From positions 3,638-67,637 of the forward strand of contig CAZEBW010000004.1 of NCBI GenBank assembly GCA_964510205.1: a stretch of DNA of 64,000 bases. The letters run 5' to 3'. The translations under genes and the position numbers were made by a program. The number at the start of each line of letters is the position of its first letter. Position 1 is the stretch's first letter. This DNA comes from an uncultured Anaerolineae bacterium (GTDB taxonomy: Bacteria > Chloroflexota > Anaerolineae > VGOG01). Of this stretch, positions 11,841 to 26,249 are shown piece by piece. The notes under the pieces are model-generated. The model was not told the origin of the DNA. It did not search any database and was given only the letters and a program-made list of their open reading frames with translations.

Positions 11841-13340
11841 TCATGGAAGCGGTGGCAGTAGTATCCTATTGATGGTTATGCCCCACTGGTCACTTCTTCG
11901 TTCAAGCCCTTCCATTAGTTGCTGGCATGCTGTGGCCTTGTTCGGCGGATCATGTACATCCTGTTGCCTGTATCCACATAACGCCTCATTCAGGAGCACG
12001 GCCATTTCCTGCACGATTTCTTTGTCCCAAATAGTCTTCATGTCGGCTTCGGTCAGTTTTTTCTTCTTGGTCTTCTTGTGGTTATTCTCACCAGATTCTC
12101 TAAAGAAGTGAGGTGCATGAACCGCTTTTTCCTTATTGACCTGGTAGTAAACTACTGGGGCAAGCTGCAAGACCCCATCTGCTAGTGCGACTTTCTGTTT
12201 GGGGCAACGGCATCTCAGCTCCATGGTCGGGATTACAGCTTGAATTTGGCTGTACAAGGGAAGCTGAAGAATACTTTGACCTTCTTCCAGCACCCTGATT
12301 TCGCGACTGTCTCCGATCACAGCAATCCTGTCGGGTGGGACGGTGAAGGTGAACGCCCTGTATCCAACGAGCACCAGAAGGACAAGCAAGAGTGGCAAGG
12401 CCGTACCCGCGGCAGTCAAGACAACGATGTGCAGTGAACTGCGCACGGAAAGCAGTATGCTCGCCAGCAGCATCAGTAGTACAATGACCACAAAGCCTGC
12501 CAACGCGCTGACAAAGGCGAGCACAGGGCTGGACAGTATTAGGTTGATGGCATCGCGAGCGTATGTGAGCAATGTCTCGAGTTGAATAGCAAGCGATGGT
12601 GGAGATTGCTCCGCCGCTCCGTCCTTCTCCTGCTCTGACGGCCTCATGCCTTGCGGACTGGCGTCTCCAGGTGGAAGGGATTCTTCGTCAATGTCCTCTG
12701 AGTTCATGGCTAGTCGTTCCGTCGTTTGCTCAGGCATACTCTCTTCACCCTCCTCTTGTTTTTGCTTCGCCTCTTGGCCTGACGGCTCCGTTTGTACGGG
12801 ACCAGCTCTTCCACGTCGAAGCGGTCCTCCGCCGGTATCTCCTGAATCCATGGCTACTTGTTGGTCTCGCAGGATCTTCCGGTATCGTGACTCGACTGTG
12901 CGCCTTAGGCGGCGGTCCATGTCCTGCAGCAGTTCCAGGCTGCGTGAACAGGCTTGACTTGCCTTGAGCCATTTGCCTTGGGCCTCGCACACCGTGGCCA
13001 ATCCAAAGAGGGCTACTGCTTGACTATGTTTGTCACTCAGAAAGAAGCGAGTGCTCTCTTGATACTTGTTGGCTGCCTCATCCAAGTGTTCCTGAGCGTG
13101 AAAGATAGCTGCGAGGTGAATAAGGGCTACCCCTTGAGCATATGAGTCATCCAACATGTCCAATTCGAGAGATCCTCTTGCTGATCTAATGCTTTGCTCA
13201 GCTATCGATTGGGCTGCTTTGTACCGGCCAGCTCGTCGCAGTTTGTCGGCCTCCTTGTTGAGCACGGTACCGCGATTAGTTCGTTCTCTTAGTTGGCGTA
13301 TGATCTGGTTGGCTTGTCGGTGGTAAGGATCGGATGTCAT
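11841..13340 (-). CDS. TPR-like / acidic linker / transmembrane / SPFH-like domain protein
   Basis: Likely start MTSDPYHRQ (rc ATG at 13338-13340). TPR-like helices, an E/D/Q-rich linker, two hydrophobic helices, then IAVIGDSREIRVLEEGQSILQLPLYSQIQAVIPTMELR...VVYYQVN resembling the start of an SPFH/band-7 domain. Confidence 0.5.
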   Translation of the reverse strand: MTSDPYHRQANQIIRQLRERTNRGTVLNKEADKLRRAGRYKAAQSIAEQSIRSARGSLELDMLDDSYAQGVALIHLAAIFHAQEHLDEAANKYQESTRFFLSDKHSQAVALFGLATVCEAQGKWLKASQACSRSLELLQDMDRRLRRTVESRYRKILRDQQVAMDSGDTGGGPLRRGRAGPVQTEPSGQEAKQKQEEGEESMPEQTTERLAMNSEDIDEESLPPGDASPQGMRPSEQEKDGAAEQSPPSLAIQLETLLTYARDAINLILSSPVLAFVSALAGFVVIVLLMLLASILLSVRSSLHIVVLTAAGTALPLLLVLLVLVGYRAFTFTVPPDRIAVIGDSREIRVLEEGQSILQLPLYSQIQAVIPTMELRCRCPKQKVALADGVLQLAPVVYYQVNKEKAVHAPHFFRESGENNHKKTKKKKLTEADMKTIWDKEIVQEMAVLLNEALCGYRQQDVHDPPNKATACQQLMEGLERRSDQWGITINRILLPPLP

Positions 13341-13419
13341 TGAAGTCCCCCCATAGAAGGAAAGCCCACCGGGATGCAGGAGAGTTGGGCCGGATAAACT
13401 AAGGTGTTCTGCGATATCG

Positions 13420-14727
13420 CTATGGGCTGCCAGGCGGCAATGCAATCGCTGATCTTATGGATTGCAGAGTGGCCATCACGTCGGAAGGCAGAAGGATCTT
13501 GGTCGCTGGATCGGAGGCCATTTTCTCCAGAGCTTCAATGAAACGCAAGGCTATGAATTGTGGAATCGGGATGTTCTTAGTCTCCATCTGACGGAAGCCT
13601 TCGGTGATGGCTATGATCATTCTAGTTTGAGCTTGTGCTCTGGCAACCTCAATCAGGTTATATACTTCAGCCTGTGCCTCGCCTTCAGTGATGAGGACTT
13701 GCTTGCGACTCTCCGCCATGCGCGCTTCCCAGTCTACTTGCCATTTCTTTTGCATTCCTTCCCTAATTTCCGGAGGCACCTCAATATTCAGCATCTGAAA
13801 GCTTATGATAGTGCCTCCCCAGCCTTCGGCTATCTTTCGCAGGGAATCTCGGACACGCTGCTTGATGTCGCTTTGAGGGAACGTGTTGGGATCCAGTGGG
13901 TCAAAGATATCATCCAAGTAACGTTTGCCAATCTCGTCGCGAAGCAGATTCTTGGCTACTTCGATAGTGGCGATTTCCCAGTCATAGCTATCGTAGGTAG
14001 CTTTGAGGACCGCCTCTCTAGAGAATGGATAGGGCTTCTCTGGGTTCCACACCTTGGCTGGATCCTGCGCGATGCGGAATAGAACGCTATAGTGGATGGT
14101 CACCGGTATGCCATCTTTGGTTGAGGCATTATCTAGCGTTCCTCTCCTGAACCGTTTCCGTGTGACGATGACCTTCCTGATACTTTCAAAAGGCTTGGTG
14201 CGCACTGCACCGGGCCCCTCAATGCGAGTGAATTTCCCCATCCGCTCGAAGACAACGGCTTGCTCGTTGCGTATTACGATCAAATTGGCTACCTTGAAGC
14301 CGGCGAGTGCGCCTTTGGACTTCACCTCGTCCACTTGGCCATCTTCAACGATGATGTAGCTTCCCAGGAATAGCTCTCCGGTGACAAAAGAGAGTAAATA
14401 CCGAAAGCAGTCCCACTGATTGCCGCCCCGGCTGACCAGTATGAGTTGCGAGGCCAGAAACAGGAGACTGCCTGTTAAGAATAGATAGACAGCCAGCCCC
14501 AATACTGCCCCCGTCAGGCCTCTCGTGACGAAGGAGAAGGTCAGAAACACCCCACTTGCAGTGAAGAATATCGCCAGCGCCACGCCCTTGCTCTGGCCCA
14601 TCCTGACAAGACACCCAAGGGAGACCACAGCGAGCCATACTAGGCCCCATTTGGGCTCGTGAACTACAGAGACTAAAATCAGTAGTGGAAGCAGGGCTAC
14701 GGACAACACAAGCAAGATCTTCTTCAT
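13420..14727 (-). CDS. SPFH/band-7 (stomatin/HflKC-like) domain membrane protein
   Basis: N-terminal 4-5 TM helices, then NEQAVVFERMGKFTRIEGPGAVRTKPFESIRKVIVTR...TKDGIPVTIHYSVLFRI (SPFH core) and a coiled-coil tail; start MKKILLVL. Confidence 0.7.
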   Translation of the reverse strand: MKKILLVLSVALLPLLILVSVVHEPKWGLVWLAVVSLGCLVRMGQSKGVALAIFFTASGVFLTFSFVTRGLTGAVLGLAVYLFLTGSLLFLASQLILVSRGGNQWDCFRYLLSFVTGELFLGSYIIVEDGQVDEVKSKGALAGFKVANLIVIRNEQAVVFERMGKFTRIEGPGAVRTKPFESIRKVIVTRKRFRRGTLDNASTKDGIPVTIHYSVLFRIAQDPAKVWNPEKPYPFSREAVLKATYDSYDWEIATIEVAKNLLRDEIGKRYLDDIFDPLDPNTFPQSDIKQRVRDSLRKIAEGWGGTIISFQMLNIEVPPEIREGMQKKWQVDWEARMAESRKQVLITEGEAQAEVYNLIEVARAQAQTRMIIAITEGFRQMETKNIPIPQFIALRFIEALEKMASDPATKILLPSDVMATLQSIRSAIALPPGSP

Positions 14728-14903
14728 AGCACAAGCTCTCCTTGTTTCTGTCAGCACTCTTAAGGTACGTGAGACTGCCGTCCAGTGCGTTCAACACGAG
14801 CTTATCTGACGGCGCCACAGGTATCACCCAGTTTCCATAGATCGAGGCAAAACCAAAAGGCCGCGGCTCGATATCGAAAACGTTTTGCAATGAGGGTGCT
14901 CAC

Positions 14904-16418
14904 TCAGCTCTGGGCGATCAAAATGGGGGAAGCCCAAGTCAAGTCATCCTTATTACGCATTGCCAGCTCTCGCCGGGCATCCAGCAGTGCCAGTTCAGGG
15001 CTGCCGTGCTGGAGCATAGAACGATAGAACGCCAGTGCCATTTCCTTGGCGCTCACTGCCGGCACTGACCACCTGTAGCCCAAAACAGACGGCACCCCTG
15101 ATTGGATAATTCCATCAGCGATACCCAGGTAGTCATCGTCCAGCAAATCAACCGGGCTGCCGGTACGAGTGCCCTCGCAGCACGTCAGGTGAAACAAACG
15201 GGTGTCAGAATCTTCCAACAGCCATCTCAGCTCATTTCCGGTCATTGGCTTTATATTCCCTGACCGGTTGCTGTCTTCCCAGAAGAACAATCTGCTCTGT
15301 TCCGGAGACCCCTCGTGAAAGACTCCGTGACCAACATAATGCACGATGTGATGCTTACACCCACGGAGCATTTCTTGCACTGCACTGTATGTAGCTGCTT
15401 CGGTTCTGACATGAGTCAAATCCAACCAGTTCAGTGGCGACAGCAAATCCACCAACTCTTCTCCGATTTTGTCAATCAGATCAATGCGTGGCTCAGTGTT
15501 GGACACGAGCAGTAGAACACGCAGGTTCTCGCCTGAACTGGCGAGACGTCGTATGAGTTCAGCAGAGATGGGTTCACGCCTCGTCACTACGCCTCGAATT
15601 TGGCGGACCATTGGATGGAGCAGTGTAAGGTAATCACCAGCCTCATCGGAAAAGATGAACTCCAGTGGCAATCCTGCCAGATCTCGGGTGGATTCAAACA
15701 CGAGGTGCAAGTATTGGTTCATTTGCGTCCTACCGAGTGCTCGGTGATACCCGTTGAGTACCGCAGAGTGCTGTTCGAACAGCAGGCGGTATAGCTCCCG
15801 TCCCACGTCTTTGATCAGAAAGCGGCGGTCTGCTGTGCTCATCATGCGTTCGCTTCCCCAGCGTGCAAAACGTGGAGCGTCGAGGCTTAGTGGATTGACA
15901 GAGGTGTATGTGAAGCGGATGTTGCCACGGCCCCGCACAAGAAGTCGCTGCCCTGGCTCTAGCGAGATTGTAATTTCGCACTCTTGGCTCGGCTCAAAGA
16001 CCGGCAATTGCCATTTCAATGACCTACTGATCACGCTATCCATCACTTTAACCACATCTTCTATCATGGTCTTTGGGAGGTACTCGGCTACAAGTCGCCG
16101 TCCAGTTGCATCAGGTTCCAGGGCGCGCCTCATCGTGTCAGGGGTACCATAGCCGGTGATAATGACAATCGGGAGCCCAGGGAATCGTCGTTTAAGCTCA
16201 GCAGCTAGATCAAGGCCTTCTAGGTTGCCTTCATCTGTCTCGTCCAAGCGCATGTCAAGTAGGGCTGCGTCGAAATGCTCTCGGTCAGACAAATCCAGGG
16301 CTCGCGCAACACTGGCAGCCGTTTTGGTTGCGTAGCCCTCGTCAATCAAGAGTTGTGAAAGGGTCACTCGCCAGTCAAACAAATCATCTACGATAAGCAC
16401 CTGGATTTGTTTAGTCAT
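14904..16418 (-). CDS. Response-regulator receiver fused to CHAT (caspase-like) protease domain
   Basis: REC: ILIVDDL...FDAALLDMRL...ITGYG...YLPKT. CHAT: IVHYVGHGVFH (catalytic His) and LFHLTCCEGT (catalytic Cys), C-terminus ALLDARRELAMRN...WASPILIAQS. Confidence 0.75.
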   Translation of the reverse strand: MTKQIQVLIVDDLFDWRVTLSQLLIDEGYATKTAASVARALDLSDREHFDAALLDMRLDETDEGNLEGLDLAAELKRRFPGLPIVIITGYGTPDTMRRALEPDATGRRLVAEYLPKTMIEDVVKVMDSVISRSLKWQLPVFEPSQECEITISLEPGQRLLVRGRGNIRFTYTSVNPLSLDAPRFARWGSERMMSTADRRFLIKDVGRELYRLLFEQHSAVLNGYHRALGRTQMNQYLHLVFESTRDLAGLPLEFIFSDEAGDYLTLLHPMVRQIRGVVTRREPISAELIRRLASSGENLRVLLLVSNTEPRIDLIDKIGEELVDLLSPLNWLDLTHVRTEAATYSAVQEMLRGCKHHIVHYVGHGVFHEGSPEQSRLFFWEDSNRSGNIKPMTGNELRWLLEDSDTRLFHLTCCEGTRTGSPVDLLDDDYLGIADGIIQSGVPSVLGYRWSVPAVSAKEMALAFYRSMLQHGSPELALLDARRELAMRNKDDLTWASPILIAQS

Positions 16419-17205
16419 GGCTGCTATCCGTGGGAGTTTCTATGGCTTTGATCACAGGGAGTGTGATCGCTATCGTCGTGCCGTGGCCAATCTCAGTATG
16501 TTTTACACTAATCTCTCCACCAAACCTGGCAAGTATCAAATGCGCTAACCAGAGACCCAGGCCCTTGTTGGTCCCGGTTGACGGAATCGGACCCTGAAAA
16601 AGATCGGCAAGAATGAGTTGCGGTATCCCTGTTCCGTTATCTGCAATCTCTACTCGCACTGTGTTGTCCGCGTCCACGTACTGGGTATGGATGTCAATAT
16701 GTCCGGGTTTTTTGCTTGTTGCTTGGATCGAGTTTTCGAGCACCGCCCGGAAAACCTCCGCGAGCAAGTGGCTATCAGCACGCACGGGAGGGACATCCTC
16801 TGGAAAATCAAAACTCACCCGTACTGTCTTGGAAGTGTGGCTAGCAGAAAGTTCTTCCCAGACCTCATACAGCAGTGAGTTTACGTCTAAGGGCATAGGC
16901 GGCTCACTCGGCTCTCTGAGTACTTCGACGGCGGCACTTAATTCGCTCAAACTGCTAATGGTCTTTTCTATGGCTGTGACCAGGTCGAGGGCGGCTCTAT
17001 CGTTGCTATTGATGTATTCCTTAAGACGACCGACTCGAACTCCCAGCAACCCAGTCAAGTTGGAGAGCTGGTGCAGTAATGCAGCAGAAGCCATCCCCAG
17101 TGCAATGAGGCTGGCCTCCTCCCCGTGGCTACGGTTAGGATGTGCACTTTCTTGCGGTAGGGGTGGATTTGGTCTCTGACTTTCCCGGTCATTTGGTGGA
17201 CTCAT
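16411..17205 (-). CDS. Cytoplasmic sensor histidine kinase (DHp + HATPase_c, no TM or sensor domain)
   Basis: H-box AALLHQLSNLTGLL; N, G1 (ADNGTGIP) and G2 (GLGLWLAHLI) boxes. Confidence 0.75.
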   Translation of the reverse strand: MSPPNDRESQRPNPPLPQESAHPNRSHGEEASLIALGMASAALLHQLSNLTGLLGVRVGRLKEYINSNDRAALDLVTAIEKTISSLSELSAAVEVLREPSEPPMPLDVNSLLYEVWEELSASHTSKTVRVSFDFPEDVPPVRADSHLLAEVFRAVLENSIQATSKKPGHIDIHTQYVDADNTVRVEIADNGTGIPQLILADLFQGPIPSTGTNKGLGLWLAHLILARFGGEISVKHTEIGHGTTIAITLPVIKAIETPTDSSHD

Positions 17206-17241
17206 TTGTCGGATTCTCCCAAGCGCGGCGCGTCCTTCAGT

Positions 17242-18768
17242 TCACTCCTGATGAATCAAGATAGGCGACAACCAGGTTGGATCGTTTCTGTCCATAGCGG
17301 CCAGCTCGCGCCTTGCGCTCCAGAGGGCGAACTCCGGCCCCCCTTGCTCCAATAAGGACTGGTAGAAAGCCAACGCCAGCCGACGGGCTCCATCATCTGA
17401 CACAGGCCAGCGGAAGCCCAGCACCGAGGGTGCGCCGGCCTGCGCGACAGCGTCGGCCAGCCCAAGGAAATCGTCATCCAGCAAAGCAGCCTGAGCGCCG
17501 CTGGCTGTGCCATAGCAACTGCTCATGTACACCAGACGTGCTTCCGAGCGCCTGAGTAGCATCTTTAGTTCGGTTGCTTTCATCGGCATGACGCCACCTT
17601 GCTTATTCTCCTGGGCCCAGAAGTATAGGCTGCTATCTTCAGGGGACTCGGTCCTGTACGAGCCATGTCCTGCGTAATGTACAATGTCGTAACTGGGCTT
17701 CCCCAACTCTGATCTTACGCGCTCATACGTGGCGCGCTCCGTGGGGATGAGTTTAACACTGACAGGGATGCAGTCCTGGCTCTTTAAGTACTCGTACAGT
17801 GCCTGCGCCTCGGCATCTACGCCGTCTATTGGAGGCTGTGTGTTAGAGGCGATAATCAGAATTCGCAATTCCTGAGTCAGTGCCAGCAGCGAAGGGGAAA
17901 TCAGGCTGCGTTTCGGGGTAGCATTGTATAGAAAACGGGCGAGGGGGTGTTGAAGTACCAGGTACTCTGGAGGATCATCCGAGCGCATAAATTCCAATGG
18001 TAGTCTGAGAAATTCCCTGGGCGTCTCAAAAAGCATTGAAAACGACTGGCTCTTGGCGCGCGCTTCCACATAGGCTTTTTCGGCTTCAGGGTGCTCAGTA
18101 AATATGTCACGCCACAGACTGTGGCCGATCTCCCCAACCTGGAAACGCAAATTGCTCACGTCTCTTCTGGCGAGTTCTGTCCGCCTTGCATAGCGTTCGA
18201 GTGCCACACGCAACACTTTCCACGAGCGCAAGGAACAGACGTGGCGACCGCGCGCCCTGATCACCAGAGGCTGTCCGGCTGTGAGTGATAGAGATAGCTG
18301 GGTAGCATCACCTGTCTTCTCAAACCTCGGCTTGGTTGCCTCCTGGCGTGCTTTCGCGATAGTCTCCAGAACTTGTTCAGCCACATCCGGGGTTTTTTCG
18401 ATGAAGTCAACTACTCCGAGATATCGAATCGCGCGTACAATTTGCTTGGTTCTCGGGTAGCGTGTGAGCAGGATGACGCGAACCCGCGGATTGAGGGCGC
18501 GGAATGCCATCGCCAGGCTCAATCCGCTTTCGTCCTCTTCATCATCTCCGTGCAGGCGCACGTCAATGAGAGCAAAGTCGAACGGTTCTTGCGTGACAGC
18601 AACCAGGGCTTGTTCCTCGTTGGCCGCTGACCGGACGGTGTATCCTTCATCGGAAAGTCGCCCTGCTAACGTGGTACAGAAATCGGCATGGTCATCTACT
18701 ATCAGAATCTTGCACATTGCTACCCTCTTCATCAACTGTCTGATGGGACGCTCCGGGTCATCCAGCAT
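17242..18768 (-). CDS. Response-regulator receiver fused to CHAT protease domain (second copy)
   Basis: REC: KILIVDDHADF...FDFALIDVRL...LTRYP...IEKT. CHAT His IVHYAGHGSY and Cys LVYMSSCYGT; start may be the internal M (MCKILIV). Confidence 0.75.
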   Translation of the reverse strand: MLDDPERPIRQLMKRVAMCKILIVDDHADFCTTLAGRLSDEGYTVRSAANEEQALVAVTQEPFDFALIDVRLHGDDEEDESGLSLAMAFRALNPRVRVILLTRYPRTKQIVRAIRYLGVVDFIEKTPDVAEQVLETIAKARQEATKPRFEKTGDATQLSLSLTAGQPLVIRARGRHVCSLRSWKVLRVALERYARRTELARRDVSNLRFQVGEIGHSLWRDIFTEHPEAEKAYVEARAKSQSFSMLFETPREFLRLPLEFMRSDDPPEYLVLQHPLARFLYNATPKRSLISPSLLALTQELRILIIASNTQPPIDGVDAEAQALYEYLKSQDCIPVSVKLIPTERATYERVRSELGKPSYDIVHYAGHGSYRTESPEDSSLYFWAQENKQGGVMPMKATELKMLLRRSEARLVYMSSCYGTASGAQAALLDDDFLGLADAVAQAGAPSVLGFRWPVSDDGARRLALAFYQSLLEQGGPEFALWSARRELAAMDRNDPTWLSPILIHQE

Positions 18769-19639
18769 TCCCCCAATTTGCCTGTATGTAACTCGTTGTC
18801 GCCTTTACGTCCAGGCTGCGAGTCGAATTGCCAATACGCACCCAGAACTTGTGAACATCGCCCGTCGCCAGGAACACCGGCTTTGGGCTTTTTTCAATCG
18901 CAACGATGCAGACGTGTTTACCATCTATGGGTTCGAAGCGTGTGCGAATGTATGGCATATATTCTAGACCCACATAGGTCTTGACAATATCCGTCAATGC
19001 CAATTGAAACCCATCGGTATTTGGCTTGCGCAGAGTTTGTAAGTCTTTTTCAATACCTAGCACCGTGCCATCGTCAGCGACGCCAATGAGTAGGGTCCCA
19101 CCCTTGCTGTTCAACATTCCTGTGATTGCCACGGCGATCGTTTCCTGCAGGCTCTTGTTAGTTGTGTTTTTCTTGAAATCCCAGCGGATACTGGACTTGA
19201 ATTCCACGTGGTCATTTTCACCTTGGGCAATCAAATTGAGTACCGAGCGTTCAAATGCGCGGTTCACGTACTCCGGCAGTTGGTCTACTTCAGATTTTTC
19301 CAGGAAGCCAAACGCTGGTGATACTCCCTCGCGATCAGGTTGAAGGACCTCCCTCACCATCCTGACGTTTGCATAGCCGGTCAAGATAATGATGGCCACA
19401 TGGGGGTCCTTCTCTCTGATCTCGCGCATAAGCAAGATGCCATCTTGGTTGTCCTCGTCGGCCTCGTCCAAGCGCACGTCCAGAACTGCGACGTGAAAAC
19501 GCTCGGCGTCCAACATTTGCAGAGCCTCAACTCTGCTGGATGCCGAGCGTACTTCATAGCCTTCGTCTGACAAAAGGCCCGACAATGTTGCGCACACGTC
19601 GGGCAGGTCATCTACTACGAGAACGCGACCTTTGTACAT
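18758..19639 (-). CDS. Response-regulator receiver fused to an AlbA_2 (Schlafen-like) domain
   Basis: Likely start MYKGRVLVVDD. REC with VAVLDVRL; C-terminal ENDHVEFKSSIRWDFKKN...TLLIGVADDGTVLGIEKD matches the AlbA_2/Schlafen N-domain signature. Confidence 0.65.
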   Translation of the reverse strand: MYKGRVLVVDDLPDVCATLSGLLSDEGYEVRSASSRVEALQMLDAERFHVAVLDVRLDEADEDNQDGILLMREIREKDPHVAIIILTGYANVRMVREVLQPDREGVSPAFGFLEKSEVDQLPEYVNRAFERSVLNLIAQGENDHVEFKSSIRWDFKKNTTNKSLQETIAVAITGMLNSKGGTLLIGVADDGTVLGIEKDLQTLRKPNTDGFQLALTDIVKTYVGLEYMPYIRTRFEPIDGKHVCIVAIEKSPKPVFLATGDVHKFWVRIGNSTRSLDVKATTSYIQANWGNAG

Positions 19640-19665
19640 GGCACTCCTGCCGATTGCATCTTGTC

Positions 19666-20067
19666 TTATCGTGCCAACACTTCCTGTACTATCTTGACCA
19701 ACTCTTCGGTCTGGGTTTTCGGGATATAGTTCGCTACAAGTCTCCGGCCCTGCGTATCTGGCTCCATTGCCCGTCTCATGGTATCCGGCGTGCCGTAGCC
19801 TGTGATCATTACGACTTCGGTAGTGGGCCAATGTTGTTTGATCTCATCCGCCAGGTCCAGCCCCTCGGTGTTACTCTCGTCCGTCTCGTCCAGGCGCATG
19901 TCCAGTACTGCCAGATCAAAATGGCTGGTTTTGAGCAACTCCAATGCCGCAGGCGAAGACTCGGCAACCTGGACATCGTATCCCGCGTCCTCCAACAAGC
20001 CACCGAGCGTCGTGCGCCAATCTAGCAGGTCATCTACCACCAGAATCTTCTGCCGTTTGTTTGTCAT
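19666..20067 (-). CDS. Single-domain CheY-like response regulator (paralog of the REC of the 14904 REC-CHAT)
   Basis: ILVVDDL...FDLAVLDMRLDETDESNTEGLDLADEIK...ITGYGTPDTMRRAMEPD...YIPKT, almost identical to the REC of 14904-16418. Confidence 0.8.
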   Translation of the reverse strand: MTNKRQKILVVDDLLDWRTTLGGLLEDAGYDVQVAESSPAALELLKTSHFDLAVLDMRLDETDESNTEGLDLADEIKQHWPTTEVVMITGYGTPDTMRRAMEPDTQGRRLVANYIPKTQTEELVKIVQEVLAR

Positions 20068-20459
20068 TCTCTTACTCCTTCGTGCTTACCATGGCGATTA
20101 CGCGGCACCTGTGGAAACAGAATGATCTCCCTGACCTGCTCGAAGAGATCCTCGCTTCCGAAAGACTTGGCGAAGTAGCGCATGGCTCCCAACCGGTAGG
20201 CCGCAAGCGCCTCTTGGGTCGTGGGTTGTACTGTTGTTACGACCACCCGCTTATCAGAGTATTTCTCAGCGATGACTGCAAGCACGTCCAGGCGGCGGGA
20301 GCTTGCGATGACCAGGTCGAACTGATCCGCTTCGAGTTCAGCGAGTGCTGCCTTGGTGTCAGGCGCAACGACGATTTCAAACTTGTTGAGATCGCTCTTG
20401 GCGAACTCAATCCAGCGAGGTTCGTCGTCAATGATCAGAATGCGAGTTTTCATGATCAC
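20064..20459 (-). CDS. Atypical receiver-like protein (pseudo-receiver; phospho-acceptor Asp apparently replaced)
   Basis: ILIIDDEP present, but the expected D in FDLVI-A-SSRRL is Ala. Confidence 0.55.
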   Translation of the reverse strand: MIMKTRILIIDDEPRWIEFAKSDLNKFEIVVAPDTKAALAELEADQFDLVIASSRRLDVLAVIAEKYSDKRVVVTTVQPTTQEALAAYRLGAMRYFAKSFGSEDLFEQVREIILFPQVPRNRHGKHEGVRE

Positions 20460-23400
20460 ACCTCCTTTCCCGTCCCCGGCGCTGGGATCTGAACCAGCAT
20501 TGTTGTTCCAGTGGGATCGGTCTCTTCTATTATAGCATCACCGCCAATACTTTGCAACATCAGTCGGCTGAGCCAGAGACCCAGACCTGCCCCTCCGCCT
20601 GGCTCCTTGGATGGGACTGGTTTGACGAAGAGACGTTGCTGGACTTGCAGTGGGATGCCCGGTCCTGTATCCTGAACCCGCACACAGATATTACTGTCGG
20701 TCAGACGACTGGTAACTGCTAACTGGCCACCCGCCTTCATTGCTCGGTAGGCATTGTCAACCAAGTTGTAGAAGACCTCAGCGATCTGACCGATCGGGGC
20801 CCGAATCTGCGGCAGCGATTGATCCAGGTCTAGGGTATGTTCGATCGTTGATCGAATGGGATCCGTTCGCCACTGTTCTCTCACTTTACCCACCACGTCA
20901 CTCAGCACTGCGTTAATGTCCACATCCTGATCCTCGACCTCTCGCAGCGGTTCTTGAATGCGCGCGATGATATCCGACGTATAGCGGGCGTTACGTTCGA
21001 TGATGTCAAGGATCTCTGCAATCGTATCATTCGACATATCAACGCGCTTCCGCAGGCGCGTCACGTTGGGAACGATGATGTTGAAGGTATTATTGACACG
21101 ATGTTGTAAAGCTGCGATGGCCGTGCCCAGTGTGGCCAAGCGCTTGGTCGCGATGACTTCACTGCGTGCCTCCTCATATAACCGGGCATTCTCAAGGGCA
21201 ATGGCTGCCTGGTTGGCCATAGAGGAGATGACCTGCAAGTCCTGTTCATCGTAGGCCTGCTCTCTTTCCCAGTCGTAGATAGCGATCACGCCCAGAACCC
21301 TATTCTCCAGAACCATCGGGACACCTATCCAAGATTTGGCGACACGCCCGATGAACTCTTGATGTCCGGGCTGTCCATACCACGCTTTAGATTCCACTTG
21401 GGTGCGATGCAGGATTGGCTTCTTGGTAAGGATGACTTCTTCGGTCTTACCCCGCTTCTCCATATCAGCCTTGCGGGGATCGTAATGCACCTGCTCACCG
21501 TGCTCCGTTGCCAGACCGAAGCGGATCATCCCTGTTTCCTCGTCATACAGCGCGATGTACATGTCCTGTGCGCCGGTCAACTCCCTGGCCTGCTCGTAGA
21601 TTAGCTCCAGAATCTCATCTTGCTTCAGACGAATACCGGAGGTTAGTGCCTGTCCTACCTCATTCAGTGCCGCCAACGCCTGAACGCGCCGTGCGAGCTG
21701 CTGGTTGATCTCGTAGTAAAGCGTTGCATTATCCAACGCGATTGCCGCTTGGTTGGCCACAGAGGAGATGACCTGCAAGTCCTGTTCATCGTAGGCCTGC
21801 TCTCTTTCCCAGTCATAAATGGCGATCATACCCAGTACCTTCTCACCTGTGACCATGGGAACGCCCAAGTAAGAAGGCTGAACACGCCCGATGAACTCTT
21901 GATGTCCGGGCTGTCCATACCACGCTTTAGATTCCACTTGGGTGCGATGCAGGATTGGCTTCTTGGTAAGGATGACTTCTTCGGTCTTACCCCGCTTCTC
22001 CATATCAGCCTTGCGGGGATCGTAATGCACCTGCTCACCGTGCTCCGTTGCCAGACCGAAGCGGATCATCCCTGTTTCCTCGTCATACAGCGCGATGTAC
22101 ATGTCCTGTGCGCCGGTCAACTCCCTGGCCTGCTCGTAGATTAGCTCCAGAATCTCATCTTGCTTCAGACGAATACCGGAGGTTAGTGTCTGTCCCACCT
22201 CGTTCACTGCCTGTATAGCTTTATACAAGCGTGCGCTTTTAATAGCAACCGCTGCTGCCCCAGCTAGGGCCTCAACCAGACGCATGTGATCGTCTGTAAA
22301 GGCTCCGATTTGGGTACTCTCCAGATTGAGCGTTCCAATCACTCTGTCACGGTGTATCAACGGTGTTGTGAGTTCGGATTGTACTTCCTCAAACCACTCC
22401 TTGTAGTACGGATCGCTTTTGATATCGTTGCAAAGATATGTCTTTCTACTCAAGGCAACGTGTCCGTTGATGCTCGTCTCGTCTAGGGGTAGTCTCGTGA
22501 GGGTTCGCGTCGGCGTCTCATCCCTCTTGTTTCTCGCCCCAAATCGCAGTTCACGTGTCCGCTCGTCCAGCAACCAAATACTCGTATACTTGGCTGGCGT
22601 CAGCCTGGCCGCTTGCTCTGCGATTTGCTCCAGCAGATCCTCTAGGGAAGCAGTGCCAATGAGCGCGTATAGGTTCTGAAGAGCTCTGATATCATCAATT
22701 CGCTCTTGTAGGCTAGTCTGAGCCTCTTCGTACACACGGGCGTTATAGATAGCTGTCGCCGCTTGATTAGCGAACAGCTCGATAGCCCCCCGTTGCTCAG
22801 GAGTGAAGGGTTGTCGGCTCCGGTAATTGACGAACATAGCGCCCACGGTTTCGCCTGCTGCTTCGAGGGGGACGGCGGCTGACGATAGGATTCCCTCGCG
22901 CACTACAAAGCGCTTTTCCGGGCGCTCAGGGCGCTCTACGGTGAATGGGCCGGTGAGCAGGGTATCCGTCTGAGTATCGGGAGAGTAGAGGGGCTCTCCA
23001 CCCTCGACCACTTTCACAACGACATCATCCTTGAATATTTCGTCCTTGACAACTGTGGGGTCTCGGCGCTCTCCTTCCAAGATAGGTGGCATGATGTAAC
23101 GGTCATCCGCCTCAACGTACTGGTACACATCCACGAGATCGGCACCCAATACACTCCTGGCACTTCGCGCCACCTGACGCAATACCTCTCTCAACCCCTG
23201 TGCCGAAAGCTCAGCCGAGAGTATTCGTCCCCCAATCTGGTGCAGCCTCTGCAAGACTGCAGCCCGGCTGGTTGCCTGCTCAAGAAGTTGAGCATTGTGT
23301 ACAGCCACGGCGGACTGGCTGGCCACCGCCTCTAACAGCATCTGATCGTGCTCGTCAAAGCCGCTCAGCCCGTCCATATCAGCAGAGATCACCCCAATAA

Positions 23401-24193
23401 CCTCGTCTTGCAAGATTATGGGCGCCAGCACCATTGAGCGCTCGACGATGTCTGACGACAAACCGGGGACAAACTGAGGGTGCTTGACCGCATCCGGGAC
23501 GAGTTCTGATTGCTTGGTTTGGGCTACCCACCCGGCCAACCCGACCCCTTGGGCGAACTGCTGTCGTGCGATGCCTGCTGACGAGGCAGCTTCCAACGCT
23601 AGGTCACCGCTCTTATCCACTAGAAAAACGCTGATGTGCTTGCAATCCAGCACTCTTTCTGCGGCTTGCATAATGCGTGCGAAAAGATCGGCACGGCGCA
23701 ATTCGGAACTGATCAAGAGGCTCACTGCGTTCAGGGTCGCCAGATCCTGAATTCGACGCTGCGTGGCAGCCACTTGAGCGGAAGAACTCTCAATCAGCGC
23801 CTTCTCGAAATCAGTGAAATCCCTTGCCTCACGGGTATAAACGTCAAGCACACCAACGATTTTCCTTTTTACTCGTAGTGGTACCACCATAGCCGACTTC
23901 AGTCCCATAGCGGTGGTTTCTGGTTTGTACTTCCAGCGAGCATCGGTGTCAACGTCTGTCACGACGATTGCCTGTTCAGTCGCAAAAACGTCAGACGCGA
24001 CACTGGGCTCATCCAGGCGCAGAAACGCATCGCGAACGTATTCCTCTGACAACTCTGTCGCTGCAGCGATCCGGAGGGTTTCCCCCGTTTCATCGGCAAG
24101 CCAGATACAGGCCGGCAGTCCCAGAGTCTGGCTTATGGTCTCCACCACGGGTTGAAAGAACTGCTTTTTATCAAGTTCTTGAGAGGGGATCAT
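20456..24193 (-). CDS. Large cytoplasmic multi-GAF-domain sensor histidine kinase (1245 aa)
   Basis: At least 5-6 GAF-like modules, coiled coil, H-box ALQHRVNN, HATPase_c (DTGPGIP...GLGLWLSR); no TM helices. Confidence 0.8.
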   Translation of the reverse strand: MIPSQELDKKQFFQPVVETISQTLGLPACIWLADETGETLRIAAATELSEEYVRDAFLRLDEPSVASDVFATEQAIVVTDVDTDARWKYKPETTAMGLKSAMVVPLRVKRKIVGVLDVYTREARDFTDFEKALIESSSAQVAATQRRIQDLATLNAVSLLISSELRRADLFARIMQAAERVLDCKHISVFLVDKSGDLALEAASSAGIARQQFAQGVGLAGWVAQTKQSELVPDAVKHPQFVPGLSSDIVERSMVLAPIILQDEVIGVISADMDGLSGFDEHDQMLLEAVASQSAVAVHNAQLLEQATSRAAVLQRLHQIGGRILSAELSAQGLREVLRQVARSARSVLGADLVDVYQYVEADDRYIMPPILEGERRDPTVVKDEIFKDDVVVKVVEGGEPLYSPDTQTDTLLTGPFTVERPERPEKRFVVREGILSSAAVPLEAAGETVGAMFVNYRSRQPFTPEQRGAIELFANQAATAIYNARVYEEAQTSLQERIDDIRALQNLYALIGTASLEDLLEQIAEQAARLTPAKYTSIWLLDERTRELRFGARNKRDETPTRTLTRLPLDETSINGHVALSRKTYLCNDIKSDPYYKEWFEEVQSELTTPLIHRDRVIGTLNLESTQIGAFTDDHMRLVEALAGAAAVAIKSARLYKAIQAVNEVGQTLTSGIRLKQDEILELIYEQARELTGAQDMYIALYDEETGMIRFGLATEHGEQVHYDPRKADMEKRGKTEEVILTKKPILHRTQVESKAWYGQPGHQEFIGRVQPSYLGVPMVTGEKVLGMIAIYDWEREQAYDEQDLQVISSVANQAAIALDNATLYYEINQQLARRVQALAALNEVGQALTSGIRLKQDEILELIYEQARELTGAQDMYIALYDEETGMIRFGLATEHGEQVHYDPRKADMEKRGKTEEVILTKKPILHRTQVESKAWYGQPGHQEFIGRVAKSWIGVPMVLENRVLGVIAIYDWEREQAYDEQDLQVISSMANQAAIALENARLYEEARSEVIATKRLATLGTAIAALQHRVNNTFNIIVPNVTRLRKRVDMSNDTIAEILDIIERNARYTSDIIARIQEPLREVEDQDVDINAVLSDVVGKVREQWRTDPIRSTIEHTLDLDQSLPQIRAPIGQIAEVFYNLVDNAYRAMKAGGQLAVTSRLTDSNICVRVQDTGPGIPLQVQQRLFVKPVPSKEPGGGAGLGLWLSRLMLQSIGGDAIIEETDPTGTTMLVQIPAPGTGKEV
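21209..22290. repeat. 540-bp tandem duplication (2 copies) of one GAF module inside the histidine kinase gene, with a ~320-nt 100% identical core
   Basis: 21343-21662 equals 21883-22202 at nucleotide level (the + strand ORFs 21359-21604 and 21749-22144 translate identically); flanks ~75-85% identical. Confidence 0.75.
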
Positions 24194-24228
24194 GGGTCAC
24201 TCTCCTTGTCATCTGTAAATGGGCAGAT

Positions 24229-25569
24229 TCAATTATGAGGTTGGTGTCTCCAGACTTCCAATGACTCCCTATATCCCGCTTCCGAAAATGCTAACCCCTT
24301 CTCCCTCAGCATCATAGCGGTGAGAAGGTGAGGTAATCCTTTCTTCTTTTCCAGGAAGACGATTTGTGGGCCGGAAAGCGTACGCCTACCATTCTTCTTC
24401 AGGAATTGCATGAGCTGGCGACGTCCGCGCTCAACGGTCTTTAAGAAACGCTGTGCCTCGGTTGAGAAATAGGATTCCAGTTTCTCCTCGTCCTCCGGCG
24501 CCGCTCGCGAAGCGTTGCGCACTGTTTGGGAAATGCAATCTATCAGTGTGGGTAGAAACCCCCTGGTTTCGATGCCCAGAACAATCTGCCGCGTTACGAC
24601 ACCTCGAATCAATAGCTTAATGAGACGCTCTCGCCCATTCTTACCTGGAGGTGGAGCGCCATCTGCGACTAGGAAATACAGCGCCTTTAGATAATCTGCC
24701 ATCACATGTTCGCTGGCAGTGATCAACGATTCTGGCAGGTCAGGTGCGCGAACGAGACTATGTATGGTGTCTGTGATCGGTTGGTAACTACTTATCTCAA
24801 ACACTGATTGAGCATCTTGCAGGATCATTGCCACGCGCTCAGTGCCAATCACCGTTTCGAAGAAAGGCTCCGTCATCGGTTGGAGCCTTTGGGTCTTAGT
24901 GTCTATCTCGGTGCTGACAAAGAGTGAATTGGCGAATTCAACGAACCGACCGCACTGGCAAGGCGGCCGACAATCGGGGCCGCAGCCAAAGACCGCGCCT
25001 CGATCAAAGAACATCTCAGTATTGGGCCCGCATTTACGATAGCGAACTACCCCTTCAATGCCATTTCCTTGTTTCCAGAGGTTGTCCTTGACTCCCAGAC
25101 CTATGATCTGCTCTTCAGGCATCCCGATACTCCGCCAAGCTTGATGAGCCTCTACATCCTCGTCAAACGCATGCTTTGAAATCTTACCCCCGGCGAAATA
25201 AGTGACCCATATGTTGTCTGGCTTGATTCTCAGGTTTGAGGTCATGAACTCCCACATTTGCTGGATAACAGTTGCCTTGCTGAGAGCATTAAAGGAAAAA
25301 GCGGCGGGCATTTCAAACAAGCTTAGGTGCACATTGTCGGTTCCAACGGTGTCAATGTCGAAATATCTGAAGCACTTTTGCACCAGTGCATACTTATGCC
25401 CGGCACGCTTGCCCATCTGATCAAGAGCCTTTTCAAATTGCGGTAATCCAGCACTCATTACGAACGACATAGGAATAGAGGGATGCAACAGCGAGGCACT
25501 AGGCAGAACGGAGAATCCTTTGCCCTGGTAATAATCGAGGAACGTTTGGCTAATGGCTGGGGATCGCAT
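24229..25569 (-). CDS. Alanyl-tRNA synthetase catalytic-fragment paralog (AlaRS N-terminal ~441-aa-like, divergent)
   Basis: SQTFLDYYQGKGFSVLPSASLL...QFEK...VQKCFRYFDIDTVG...HLSLFEMPAAFSF...GKNGRERLIKLLIRG is collinear with the AlaRS N-terminus (FLDFF..GH..VPS..LLFTNAGM..QKCIR..D.VG..HHTFFEML.NFSFGDYFK..GNEGRGYVLRRIIRR). No editing or C-Ala domains; several canonical motif residues are changed. Confidence 0.6.
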   Translation of the reverse strand: MRSPAISQTFLDYYQGKGFSVLPSASLLHPSIPMSFVMSAGLPQFEKALDQMGKRAGHKYALVQKCFRYFDIDTVGTDNVHLSLFEMPAAFSFNALSKATVIQQMWEFMTSNLRIKPDNIWVTYFAGGKISKHAFDEDVEAHQAWRSIGMPEEQIIGLGVKDNLWKQGNGIEGVVRYRKCGPNTEMFFDRGAVFGCGPDCRPPCQCGRFVEFANSLFVSTEIDTKTQRLQPMTEPFFETVIGTERVAMILQDAQSVFEISSYQPITDTIHSLVRAPDLPESLITASEHVMADYLKALYFLVADGAPPPGKNGRERLIKLLIRGVVTRQIVLGIETRGFLPTLIDCISQTVRNASRAAPEDEEKLESYFSTEAQRFLKTVERGRRQLMQFLKKNGRRTLSGPQIVFLEKKKGLPHLLTAMMLREKGLAFSEAGYRESLEVWRHQPHN

Positions 25570-25620
25570 TTTCTAGCTCCAAATCACGCGATACACCGAA
25601 CGTTATTGTAGATGCATGAA

Positions 25621-25649
25621 TATTATATCAAACCTGTCCTTAAATGTCA
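25621..25649 (-). promoter_or_regulatory. Perfect sigma70 consensus promoter (TTGACA-17-TATAAT on the minus strand) driving the AlaRS-like / HK / REC / CHAT operon
   Basis: Reverse complement reads ttgacatttaaggacaggtttgatataat; ~45-nt leader with ggag RBS before the ATG at 25569. Confidence 0.55.
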
Positions 25650-25704
25650 AGGCATCCAAAATACTGGATAGACATACACCGTATCGTTCAAGGAGTTGGG
25701 GTAA

Positions 25705-26070
25705 TCACACATTCGGGTGATGGCACTTCTTCCCAGTCGAAAATATCTCTAGCGAAGGGGCATCATATCGAGGCCCTCCTTCGAAGTCCCTAACGAACCG
25801 GTAAAACTCGTCAATGAAGCTGACTAATTCATCAGTATGCTCACTGATCGCCTTGACATCAGGGGAGATGTTCTCCTTGAGTTCCCTCTTGAACTTTTCA
25901 TCCTTCTCCTCAAGAGCAGCCCAATCCCAAGCCCCGTCAAGGTACTTGCGAATCTCCCCTAGCACATGATCTCGTGCGAGTGTGAGATCAGATGGGCAAT
26001 CTTTTGCCTTTAATCTACGATAATCTAATTCCATTTCCCTGCAAAGGGCTGGCGCATGGTCTCTGTCCAT
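25705..26070 (-). CDS. Hypothetical protein (possible C-terminal part of a frameshifted lipoprotein)
   Basis: 121-aa ORF, no domain; low-GC. Confidence 0.3.
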   Translation of the reverse strand: MDRDHAPALCREMELDYRRLKAKDCPSDLTLARDHVLGEIRKYLDGAWDWAALEEKDEKFKRELKENISPDVKAISEHTDELVSFIDEFYRFVRDFEGGPRYDAPSLEIFSTGKKCHHPNV

Positions 26071-26249
26071 CCCCTCGAAACTCTCAACACGTGAGTCAAA
26101 TTCATTGAGCGATTGACCAGCTCACAGGCATATTCCCTTACCAATTTGACATCAGCAGGTTTTGAGGATGTCTGCTCAGGGCTGCAGGCCATGACCACCG
26201 GCATTAGAAAACAAAACAGAAGTAGCAAGACAATCTTTTTCATGAGCAC
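26025..26249 (-). CDS. Lipoprotein N-terminal fragment (signal peptide + lipobox), possibly frameshifted into the downstream ORF
   Basis: MLMKKIVLLLLFCFLMPVVMACSPEQ; overlaps 25705-26070 in another frame by 46 nt. Confidence 0.35.
   Translation of the reverse strand: MLMKKIVLLLLFCFLMPVVMACSPEQTSSKPADVKLVREYACELVNRSMNLTHVLRVSRGWTETMRQPFAGKWN

Follow-up and report, generated by a model that had tools for sequence, protein, structure and literature searches.

An alanyl-tRNA synthetase catalytic-fragment paralogue linked to multi-GAF histidine kinases: a candidate input module for two-component signalling

Pieces of aminoacyl-tRNA synthetases (aaRS) have been repurposed in several ways, and HisZ, GCN2, EpmA, AcmF and AlaX each opened a line of biology. 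HisZ, a HisRS paralogue, is the regulatory subunit of ATP-phosphoribosyltransferase, and the GCN2 kinase carries a HisRS-like domain, a case of a protein kinase with a synthetase-like sensor attached. In the lineage of alanyl-tRNA synthetase (AlaRS), AcmF is an AlaRS-like, Ala-tRNA(Ala)-dependent alanyl transferase (PMC12945691; ACS Catal 2024 14:3533). An aaRS paralogue recruited as a regulatory module is, in other words, a kind already known, and what is new in the case described here is an AlaRS-derived version linked to a kinase. The gene in question lies at 24229..25569, on the minus strand, of a 64,000-nucleotide stretch of DNA (the window, also called the 64-kb window below) from an uncultured Anaerolineae bacterium (GenBank assembly GCA_964510205.1, contig CAZEBW010000004.1). 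It encodes a stand-alone paralogue of the AlaRS catalytic fragment, which belongs to a family associated with multi-GAF histidine kinases and may serve as their input module.

A reading of the window made from its sequence alone (the sequence-only reading) had proposed a divergent, stand-alone AlaRS fragment, collinear over ~441 residues and devoid of the editing and C-Ala domains, and this description is borne out. The gene is an open reading frame (ORF) with an ATG start and a TGA stop, encoding 446 amino acids (aa) that comprise an aminoacylation domain and a tRNA-recognition-like helical domain. In Pfam, tRNA-synt_2c alone matches the protein, at E=5.2e-70 and with residues 6-442 aligned to positions 2-426 of the 552 in the profile; no editing (tRNA_SAD) or C-Ala (DHHA1) domain is present, and the ORF stops at residue 446. 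The top sequence relatives in the PDB are the AlaRS N-terminal fragments 9jdn (E=7e-49) and 9jc7 (~1e-48), and further relatives are E. coli 3hxu/3hxz (residues 6-433) and Aquifex 1riq. The structure-prediction check suggested at the time points the same way, since an AlphaFold2 (AF2) model built on 80 family sequences (pLDDT 90.3, pTM 0.89) matches AlaRS catalytic fragments in Foldseek with TM-scores of 0.77-0.83. By alignment, the class II catalytic core takes up about aa 1-250 (24820..25569, minus strand; residue roles from PMC12143591) and the helical domain about aa 251-446 (24232..24819, minus strand; PMC6055181). A loop over the active site, MSFVMSAG, is invariant in the family and is at the same time the sole low-confidence stretch of the model, which is why it is consistent with a lid that becomes ordered upon ligand binding.

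That the gene might be a truncation artefact or pseudogene of alaS, created by a frameshift or a contig break, was the outcome that the sequence-only reading had named as its own undoing. When full-length canonical AlaRSs are used as queries, they match the 64-kb window at 24229..25569 only, via their first ~440 residues, with no C-terminal remnant in any frame and no second alaS, in line with the earlier remark that the window holds no canonical copy. The ORF is intact, with a promoter, a ribosome-binding site and a stop codon, no AlaRS C-terminal similarity follows it, and more than 100 clusters of same-length homologues, 49-87% identical, exist in many assemblies. An artefact was thus ruled out, and we give this explanation practically no chance.

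How large and how distinct is this family? A word-indexed search with the 446-aa protein returned 609 relatives at E<=1e-10; nearly all of the 120 best clusters are 413-485 aa long (a few are shorter and partial) and 49-87% identical. In an exhaustive phmmer search of 1.84 billion representatives, the family scored ~300-470 bits; below it came canonical ~880-aa AlaRSs, with no more than 220 bits and an identity of 30-34%. A neighbour-joining tree of 153 sequences shows the kinase-associated AlaRS-like family to be monophyletic and separate from canonical AlaRS, as the proteins with Glu at the position of Asp235 form a single clade (20/20 bootstraps) on a long stem (0.34). A scan of one genome per GTDB species yielded 70 loci, predominantly in Chloroflexota (Anaerolineae, Caldilineaceae, Promineifilaceae, Thermoflexia and Chloroflexia), the other hosts being filamentous cyanobacteria (Phormidium, Spirulina, Leptolyngbyaceae), Saprospiraceae, Thiothrix/Thiofilum/Thiolinea, Methylococcaceae, Gallionella and Thermodesulfovibrionales. 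Family proteins are ~380-460 aa long; one protein (P0235, 976 aa) has an unannotated C-terminal extension of ~600 aa. No relative was found on viral contigs, and a phage origin was rejected. Current databases label the family 'alanyl-tRNA synthetase' (JGI) or 'hypothetical protein' (NCBI). The full-text literature, searched for AlaRS-like proteins or paralogues, PF01411/tRNA-synt_2c and synthetase-like domains with histidine kinases, surfaced AcmF and a review of cyanobacterial orthocaspases tabling an AlaRS-like ('alas') domain fused to caspase homologues, which was not followed up; none of the papers so returned describes the kinase-linked family, which is apparently undescribed.

Clues to function come from which residues were kept and which were switched. 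In AlaRS, the motif-2 Phe and the motif-3 Arg sandwich the adenine, the motif-2 Arg binds the alpha-phosphate, the methyl group of alanine contacts a Val (V214 equivalent) and its amino group binds Asp235 (PMC12143591). We compared, column by column, 86 down-weighted family sequences with 83 canonical AlaRSs, using E. coli numbering. Conserved in both sets are A41, G42, Q65, C67, R69, D76, H86, F90, M92, W170, E183, D187, R206, E209, N212, F215, G239, E241 and R242, and, in the helical part, R305, R314, G402(403) and P404. The 446-aa protein has all of the class II ATP/adenylate residues R69, F90, R242, E183, E209 and N212: it keeps R68 (R69), F85 (F90), W165 (W170), E185 (E183), E211 (E209) and N214 (N212), together with motif 3 (G242/E244/R245), and the N212 equivalent is present in 96% of the family. 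Relative to E. coli AlaRS, it has insertions at positions 133/134 and 174/175.

The amino-acid pocket tells a different story. The 446-aa protein has L216 (V214), E238 (D235), V240 (G237) and A213 (W211), and in the family Glu at 235 (100%), Leu at 214 (87%) and Val at 237 (94%) replace residues (D, V and G) that are 100% conserved in canonical AlaRS. Fixed but different in the family are V214L, D235E, G237V, N95A, T88S, L37F, D400K (PMC6055181 numbering) and F424Y, while canonical-invariant positions that have been relaxed include W211, S97-K103 (SFGDYFK), L93, R315, R8, H20, P30 and D33, among others. The family can therefore be recognised by a signature, R69/F90/N212 with L214-E235-V237 (rarely V/I/R214 or A/G237) and usually K at Asp400, and the 446-aa protein reads R, F, N, L, E, V and K at these positions. 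The adenylate site thus appears to be under purifying selection, whereas other residues have become fixed in the amino-acid pocket and at the contacts for RNA identity, and it is because the replacements are themselves conserved while the adenylate site is kept that the pattern speaks for neofunctionalisation rather than decay.

Not every oddity of the protein is informative, however. The sequence-only reading had based its case on two altered motifs, HHTFFEML (E. coli H86-L93) to HLSLFEMP and SFGDYFK (S97-K103) to SFNALSK, and both changes are real, the relaxation of SFGDYFK being genuine; but H87L is not diagnostic, as it occurs in canonical AlaRSs including a Chloroflexota alaS, and HLSLFEMP retains the adenine-stacking Phe. 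The changes that, judged from the alignment, are decisive – V214L, D235E, G237V, N303G and D400K – were not on its list. We also considered a four-residue deletion in the motif-2 loop (E. coli A70-K73, hence loss of K73) and a Cys4 motif, C196-x3-C200-x3-C204-x-C206 (24952..24984, minus strand), as paralogue-specific features, and this was ruled out, as both are found in most of the nearest canonical ~880-aa AlaRSs. The canonical Chloroflexota alaS at L070 (885 aa), for example, has the short loop and 'HLTFFEML', yet its D235, G237, V214 and YDTFGFP are intact. Since they are common to the nearest canonical AlaRSs, the short loop, H87L and Cys4 look inherited from a canonical ancestor and as such are uninformative on loss of function. 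The Cys4 motif (CX3CX3CXC; comparison sequences P0170-P0270) is invariant in the family, sits at the E. coli loop G194-G204 and probably forms a metal-binding knuckle, the metal site of a large AlaRS subgroup.

Two explanations can be weighed on these residues. A genuine second AlaRS, that is, an editing-less minimal enzyme used for example under stress or for antibiotic resistance, would fit with the retained fold and ATP-site residues and with the fact that E. coli fragments 1-441/461 aminoacylate (PDB 3HXU). It is nonetheless very improbable: D235, G237, V214, Asn303 and Asp400 are all replaced, the protein scores 224.3 bits with TIGR00344 (equivalog cutoff 457.05) and 190.8 bits with NF002436 (cutoff 529), and the gene context is always a kinase and never translation. 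The earlier conclusion that this is no housekeeping synthetase therefore stands, on grounds that now include the alanine pocket and the residues that read G3:U70. The same reading had also entertained a pseudo-enzyme, and in this it is not followed. An inert scaffold, in which the fold does no more than offer the kinase a surface for docking or oligomerisation and the old active site is free of ligand, would account for the relaxed R85, S97-F102, W211 and R315, all canonical-invariant, and non-catalytic regulatory aaRS paralogues are known (HisZ, the HisRS-like domain of GCN2). Such a scaffold is improbable, however: the residues of the adenylate site do not vary between phyla where overall identity is ~35-50%, the substitutions in the pocket are fixed, conserved switches and show no drift, and tandem forms retain both sets of residues in each copy.

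The helical domain bears on what we regard as the main rival explanation. In AlaRS, G3:U70 is read by Asn303 and Asp400, with Tyr399 and Gly403, and in the E. coli enzyme D400A/N nearly abolishes the use of tRNA(Ala) and N303A leads to loss of G3:C70 rejection (PMC6055181). In the 446-aa protein, Asn303 corresponds to G309 and Tyr399-Asp400 to E407-K408, and the Gly403 equivalent is kept; in the family, the positions of Asn303, Asp400, Tyr399 and Gly403 are Gly, Lys, Glu and Gly. The reader loops, PPPGK(N/D)GRER and EKxxGLP, are among the most conserved stretches of the helical domain, whose basic helix (R313, R315, K318, R322) is kept. The protein might accordingly be a sensor of tRNA state with a logic like that of GCN2, binding the acceptor stems or 3' ends of uncharged, damaged or foreign tRNAs without G3:U70 specificity, and tRNA binding would toggle the GAF kinase on or off. 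Most members have a complete helical domain, in which the two loops that read G3:U70 in AlaRS are the best conserved parts; basic residues have been kept or gained (K408 in addition to those of the helix); the effect of N303A means that the Asn303-to-Gly change could admit generic helices; the adenine site could accommodate A76; and AcmF, also a truncated AlaRS-like protein, can use tRNA(Ala) as substrate (PMC12945691). Opposed to this are (i) Lys at a position where D400A/N is nearly inactive in E. coli AlaRS, (ii) a sub-branch that is without the C-terminal part bearing the Asp400 loop and is still linked to a kinase, (iii) the lack of associated tRNA genes or Rfam elements (no tRNA gene lies beside the module in the window and none recurs in 48 loci, and no Rfam family, including T-box or other regulatory RNA upstream, reaches the gathering score in the window) and (iv) the coherent remodelling of the amino-acid pocket, which a tRNA sensor alone leaves unexplained. 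On balance we hold a tRNA-state sensor to be unlikely, but a serious contender.

The sub-branch just mentioned is mostly proteobacterial (Thiothrix relatives, with one Thermodesulfovibrionales locus; L061-L066, P0174, P0187, P0198 and P0247), and its ~380-aa proteins lack the C-terminal ~60-100 residues of the helical domain, and have V/A or V/G rather than L/V at positions 214/237. The next gene still encodes a GAF protein, which in some loci is a hybrid histidine kinase (HK) of GAF-HK-REC type. Because these proteins drop the C-terminal helical part but keep the adenylate-site residues and the kinase linkage, the pocket of the catalytic core appears to be the universally conserved functional element.

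The other pillar of the argument is genetic linkage. Loci were annotated by phmmer with the window's own proteins as queries, and linkage was scored in the 52 loci that have at least 1.5 kb of downstream sequence. In 46 of them a gene with GAF domains, most often one for a multi-GAF histidine kinase, follows the AlaRS-like gene in the same orientation at a distance of no more than 400 nt, or is fused to it. The six exceptions comprise fragments, a copy with a frameshift ahead of a kinase gene, a case in which the kinase lies at a distance of ~1 kb, and a case with a GAFx6 gene directly upstream. In ten loci a GAF-only gene lies just upstream of the AlaRS-like gene. Five loci that were looked up (51-64% identity) share a common order of AlaRS-like gene, multi-GAF kinase (1176-1889 aa) and REC proteins, and four of these have effector-linked genes: SLFN_AlbA_2, TCAD9+APH, EAD7-CHAT or CHAT on REC, and EAD11-REC beside an EAD11-Trypsin gene. 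Across loci the effectors vary (CHAT, Schlafen/AlbA_2, APH-TCAD9, trypsin), and among 38 loci whose downstream sequence extends to 8 kb or more CHAT was seen in 12 and SLFN in four; the module is reduced to AlaRS-like protein, GAF-kinase and REC in cyanobacteria, Saprospiraceae and the Thiothrix group, the REC, where present, being fused to the kinase in Thiothrix relatives and Methylococcaceae. The constant partner of the AlaRS-like gene is the GAF kinase, and the functional link to the Schlafen-like domain that had been suggested earlier is weak and not conserved. Within the kinases, the best-conserved segment is the GAF type nearest the catalytic core, found in 39 of 39 partner kinases with a median identity of 47% (29% for the kinase core). 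Searches of the GAF domains against the PDB gave generic matches only (DevS, PDE5) and no clue to a ligand.

In several cases linkage has become fusion, with the AlaRS-like module at the N-terminus of the GAF-domain protein: P0126 is AlaRS-like+GAFx5+HATPase (1718 aa), P0128 is AlaRS-like+GAFs (1300 aa, a type also found on GTDB contig L041), and P0122 and P0123 are 2xAlaRS-like+GAFx2+HK (1488 and 1448 aa). There is also a 2xAlaRS-like protein of 910 aa, tandem domains are found in P0121-P0123, and one locus has tandem AlaRS-like genes (L054 8598-11386). In these tandem forms both copies carry the full residue signature, which hints at a (hetero)dimeric working unit. Together, conserved synteny and natural kinase fusions strongly back the suggestion of the sequence-only reading that the protein is a repurposed binding or input module.

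The reading that we favour, with a confidence only a little better than even, is that this neofunctionalised AlaRS catalytic-fragment paralogue works in the cytoplasm as an input module dedicated to one partner, a soluble multi-GAF histidine kinase. The protein would still bind an adenine nucleotide, its remodelled pocket would hold a small ligand other than L-alanine, and it might form an acyl-adenylate. It would dock on the GAF array and pass on ligand occupancy or turnover by direct contact, modulating autophosphorylation of the kinase, which in turn would phosphorylate effector-fused REC domains. In the window, two CHAT proteases and one Schlafen/AlbA_2 protein carry such domains; the pseudo-receiver and the plain receiver would probably serve for buffering or relay. 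The AlaRS-like protein is not expected to charge tRNA(Ala) for translation. A bolder variant, which we find distinctly unlikely, is an active adenylate-forming enzyme that makes a new signal of the acyl- or aminoacyl-adenylate type, to be read by the kinase-proximal GAF domain ('messenger synthase + GAF receptor'). If true, a synthetase-derived pair of messenger synthase and GAF receptor would gate caspase-like and Schlafen-like effectors in filamentous bacteria; a bacterial GCN2-like sensor of tRNA state would be a comparably novel alternative.

Several points weigh against a ligand-binding input module. R85, SFGDYFK and W211, canonical-invariant, vary in the family and the motif-2 loop is short (although related canonical AlaRSs have the same), so that binding of the ATP triphosphate or adenylation chemistry could be impaired. 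Read-through or mistakes in gene calling could, in principle, account for the fusions, but these come in several independent architectures. Finally, all that goes beyond synteny, fusion and residue conservation has been inferred.

In the window, the AlaRS-like gene is the first gene of a signalling operon, as had been claimed. A sigma-70-type promoter (25622..25650, minus strand; TTGACA-17 nt-TATAAT with an extended TG, 12/12 consensus matches) lies 52 nt upstream of its ATG, no terminator occurs between the promoter/AlaRS-like gene and the kinase gene, and a gap of 35 nt separates the AlaRS-like stop from the kinase start, which is preceded by an AAGGAG ribosome-binding site. The genes that follow, all on the minus strand, encode a soluble histidine kinase with six GAF domains (20456..24193, 1245 aa), a single-domain REC without the phospho-acceptor Asp, that is, a pseudo-receiver (20064..20459), a single-domain REC with the acceptor Asp (19666..20067), a REC-Schlafen/AlbA_2 effector (18758..19639, with a likely true start at ATG 19639 after AGGAG, the mechanical ORF reaching 19831), a REC-CHAT effector, CHAT being a caspase-like protease (17242..18768), a second, short histidine kinase (HATPase_c; 16411..17205), a second REC-CHAT effector (14904..16418), a membrane-anchored SPFH/Band_7 protein (13420..14757) and, at the end of the gene block, a TPR protein with transmembrane segments (11841..13445). 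None of the signalling proteins of the operon has transmembrane segments, which implies that the operon senses an intracellular cue.

Other features of the region deserve a mention. The pseudo-receiver has DLVIASSRR in place of DLxxLD and a deletion of ~10 aa; this form of the first REC is conserved across Chloroflexota operons, and the Asp is kept in the cyanobacterial, Saprospiraceae and Thiothrix versions. The number of GAF domains ranges from 1 to 7 among orthologous kinases, and in the window the kinase gene contains a 540-nt tandem duplication (21186-22181, minus strand) that doubles one GAF domain and has a 300-nt core that is 100% identical (21342-21641 = 21882-22181); either the GAF array expanded very recently or the assembly is at fault. 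The G+C content of the signalling gene block (12000-26000) is 0.50-0.55, against 0.58-0.65 in most other parts of the window, which is compatible with horizontal acquisition. Pairs of SPFH/Band_7 genes, often with a TPR protein, recur beside the AlaRS-like/kinase module in several Chloroflexota (L003/L010-L013, L032 and L075), where they are upstream of the module, in contrast to their downstream placement in the window. Upstream of the promoter, 25705-26243 (minus strand) encodes a putative lipoprotein of ~72 aa (its signal peptide ends in VMAC) and a 121-aa protein without family match, and these small ORFs are conserved in near-identical contigs only (L008, L009), which places them outside the conserved module.

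What would this family mean for the field? It would be the first family of AlaRS catalytic fragments hard-wired into two-component signalling, and it offers a concrete candidate, open to testing, for the route by which a cue related to amino acids, nucleotides or tRNA could reach a cytoplasmic histidine kinase. Since the outputs include caspase-like CHAT proteases and conflict-system adaptors, in mostly filamentous hosts, it is also relevant to how multicellular prokaryotes regulate cell death or dormancy. On a more practical note, mislabelling as alanyl-tRNA synthetase can mislead annotation and completeness checks of metagenome-assembled genomes, and the L214/E235/V237 signature cleanly separates the family from true alaS.

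Compared with known systems, the protein shares the two-domain fold of canonical AlaRS fragments (E. coli 1-441, 3HXU; Methylomonas AlaRS429, 9JC7; Aquifex 1RIQ) and is collinear with them over ~440 residues at 28-34% identity, but canonical AlaRSs have editing and C-Ala domains and a role in translation, whereas the family has neither domain and resides in a kinase operon. AlaX is likewise a free-standing piece of AlaRS, but it is the editing domain, and the family corresponds to the other part, the catalytic fragment at the N-terminus.

Among characterised proteins, AcmF, from ascamycin biosynthesis, comes closest in architecture. It is also truncated, AlaRS-like and non-translational, consists of the aminoacylation and tRNA-recognition domains only, and shows the same Asp-to-Glu change at the amino-group position (D232E in AcmF; PMC12945691). 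This kinship, along with the retained adenylate site and the tight linkage to a defined protein partner, raises the question of whether the protein is a group-transfer enzyme, working from aminoacyl-tRNA like AcmF or, like EpmA/PoxA and the lactyltransferase activity of AlaRS, from an acyl-adenylate to a lysine of a protein, with the kinase, a REC protein or a small molecule as its covalently modified target. Several differences make this quite improbable. AcmF, compared here by its description, has reportedly lost most ATP-binding residues and has N219Q, whereas the family keeps the ATP site and Asn212, and the spacing from the strand Asn/Gln to the Glu is 13 residues in AcmF and 24 in the family. 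AcmF belongs to a nucleoside-antibiotic (nucleoside-sulfamate) cluster, whereas the neighbours of 24229..25569 in the window are kinase, REC, CHAT, SLFN and SPFH genes, with no biosynthetic genes near it; no conserved acceptor was identified; and the family, unlike AcmF, has exchanged the residues that read G3:U70 and goes together with a GAF-type histidine kinase.

With Detocs-type and EAD/TCAD/CHAT conflict systems (PMC7159879), our input-module candidate shares the arrangement of a kinase, single REC(s) and a REC with a swappable effector, a set of effectors and adaptors of conflict-system type (CHAT, Trypsin, EAD7, EAD11, TCAD9, SLFN) and an enrichment in filamentous, multicellular bacteria. 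It differs in that no PADLOC model fits (neither the AlaRS-like protein nor either kinase is matched, and REC-level matches are weak, with E about 1e-6 or weaker), that the sensor part consists of GAF domains and the AlaRS-like protein, and that the cyanobacterial, Saprospiraceae and Thiothrix-group modules are without death-type effectors. AlaRS is not mentioned in the description of those systems (Kaur et al. 2020, eLife).

The nearest functional logic, by analogy, is that of HisZ and GCN2, in which a synthetase-derived, non-translational module is likewise adjacent or fused to the enzyme or kinase that it regulates. Those examples come from the HisRS lineage, whereas the family described here arose in the AlaRS lineage, is bacterial, is wired to a GAF histidine kinase and has kept the residues of its nucleotide site fully conserved.

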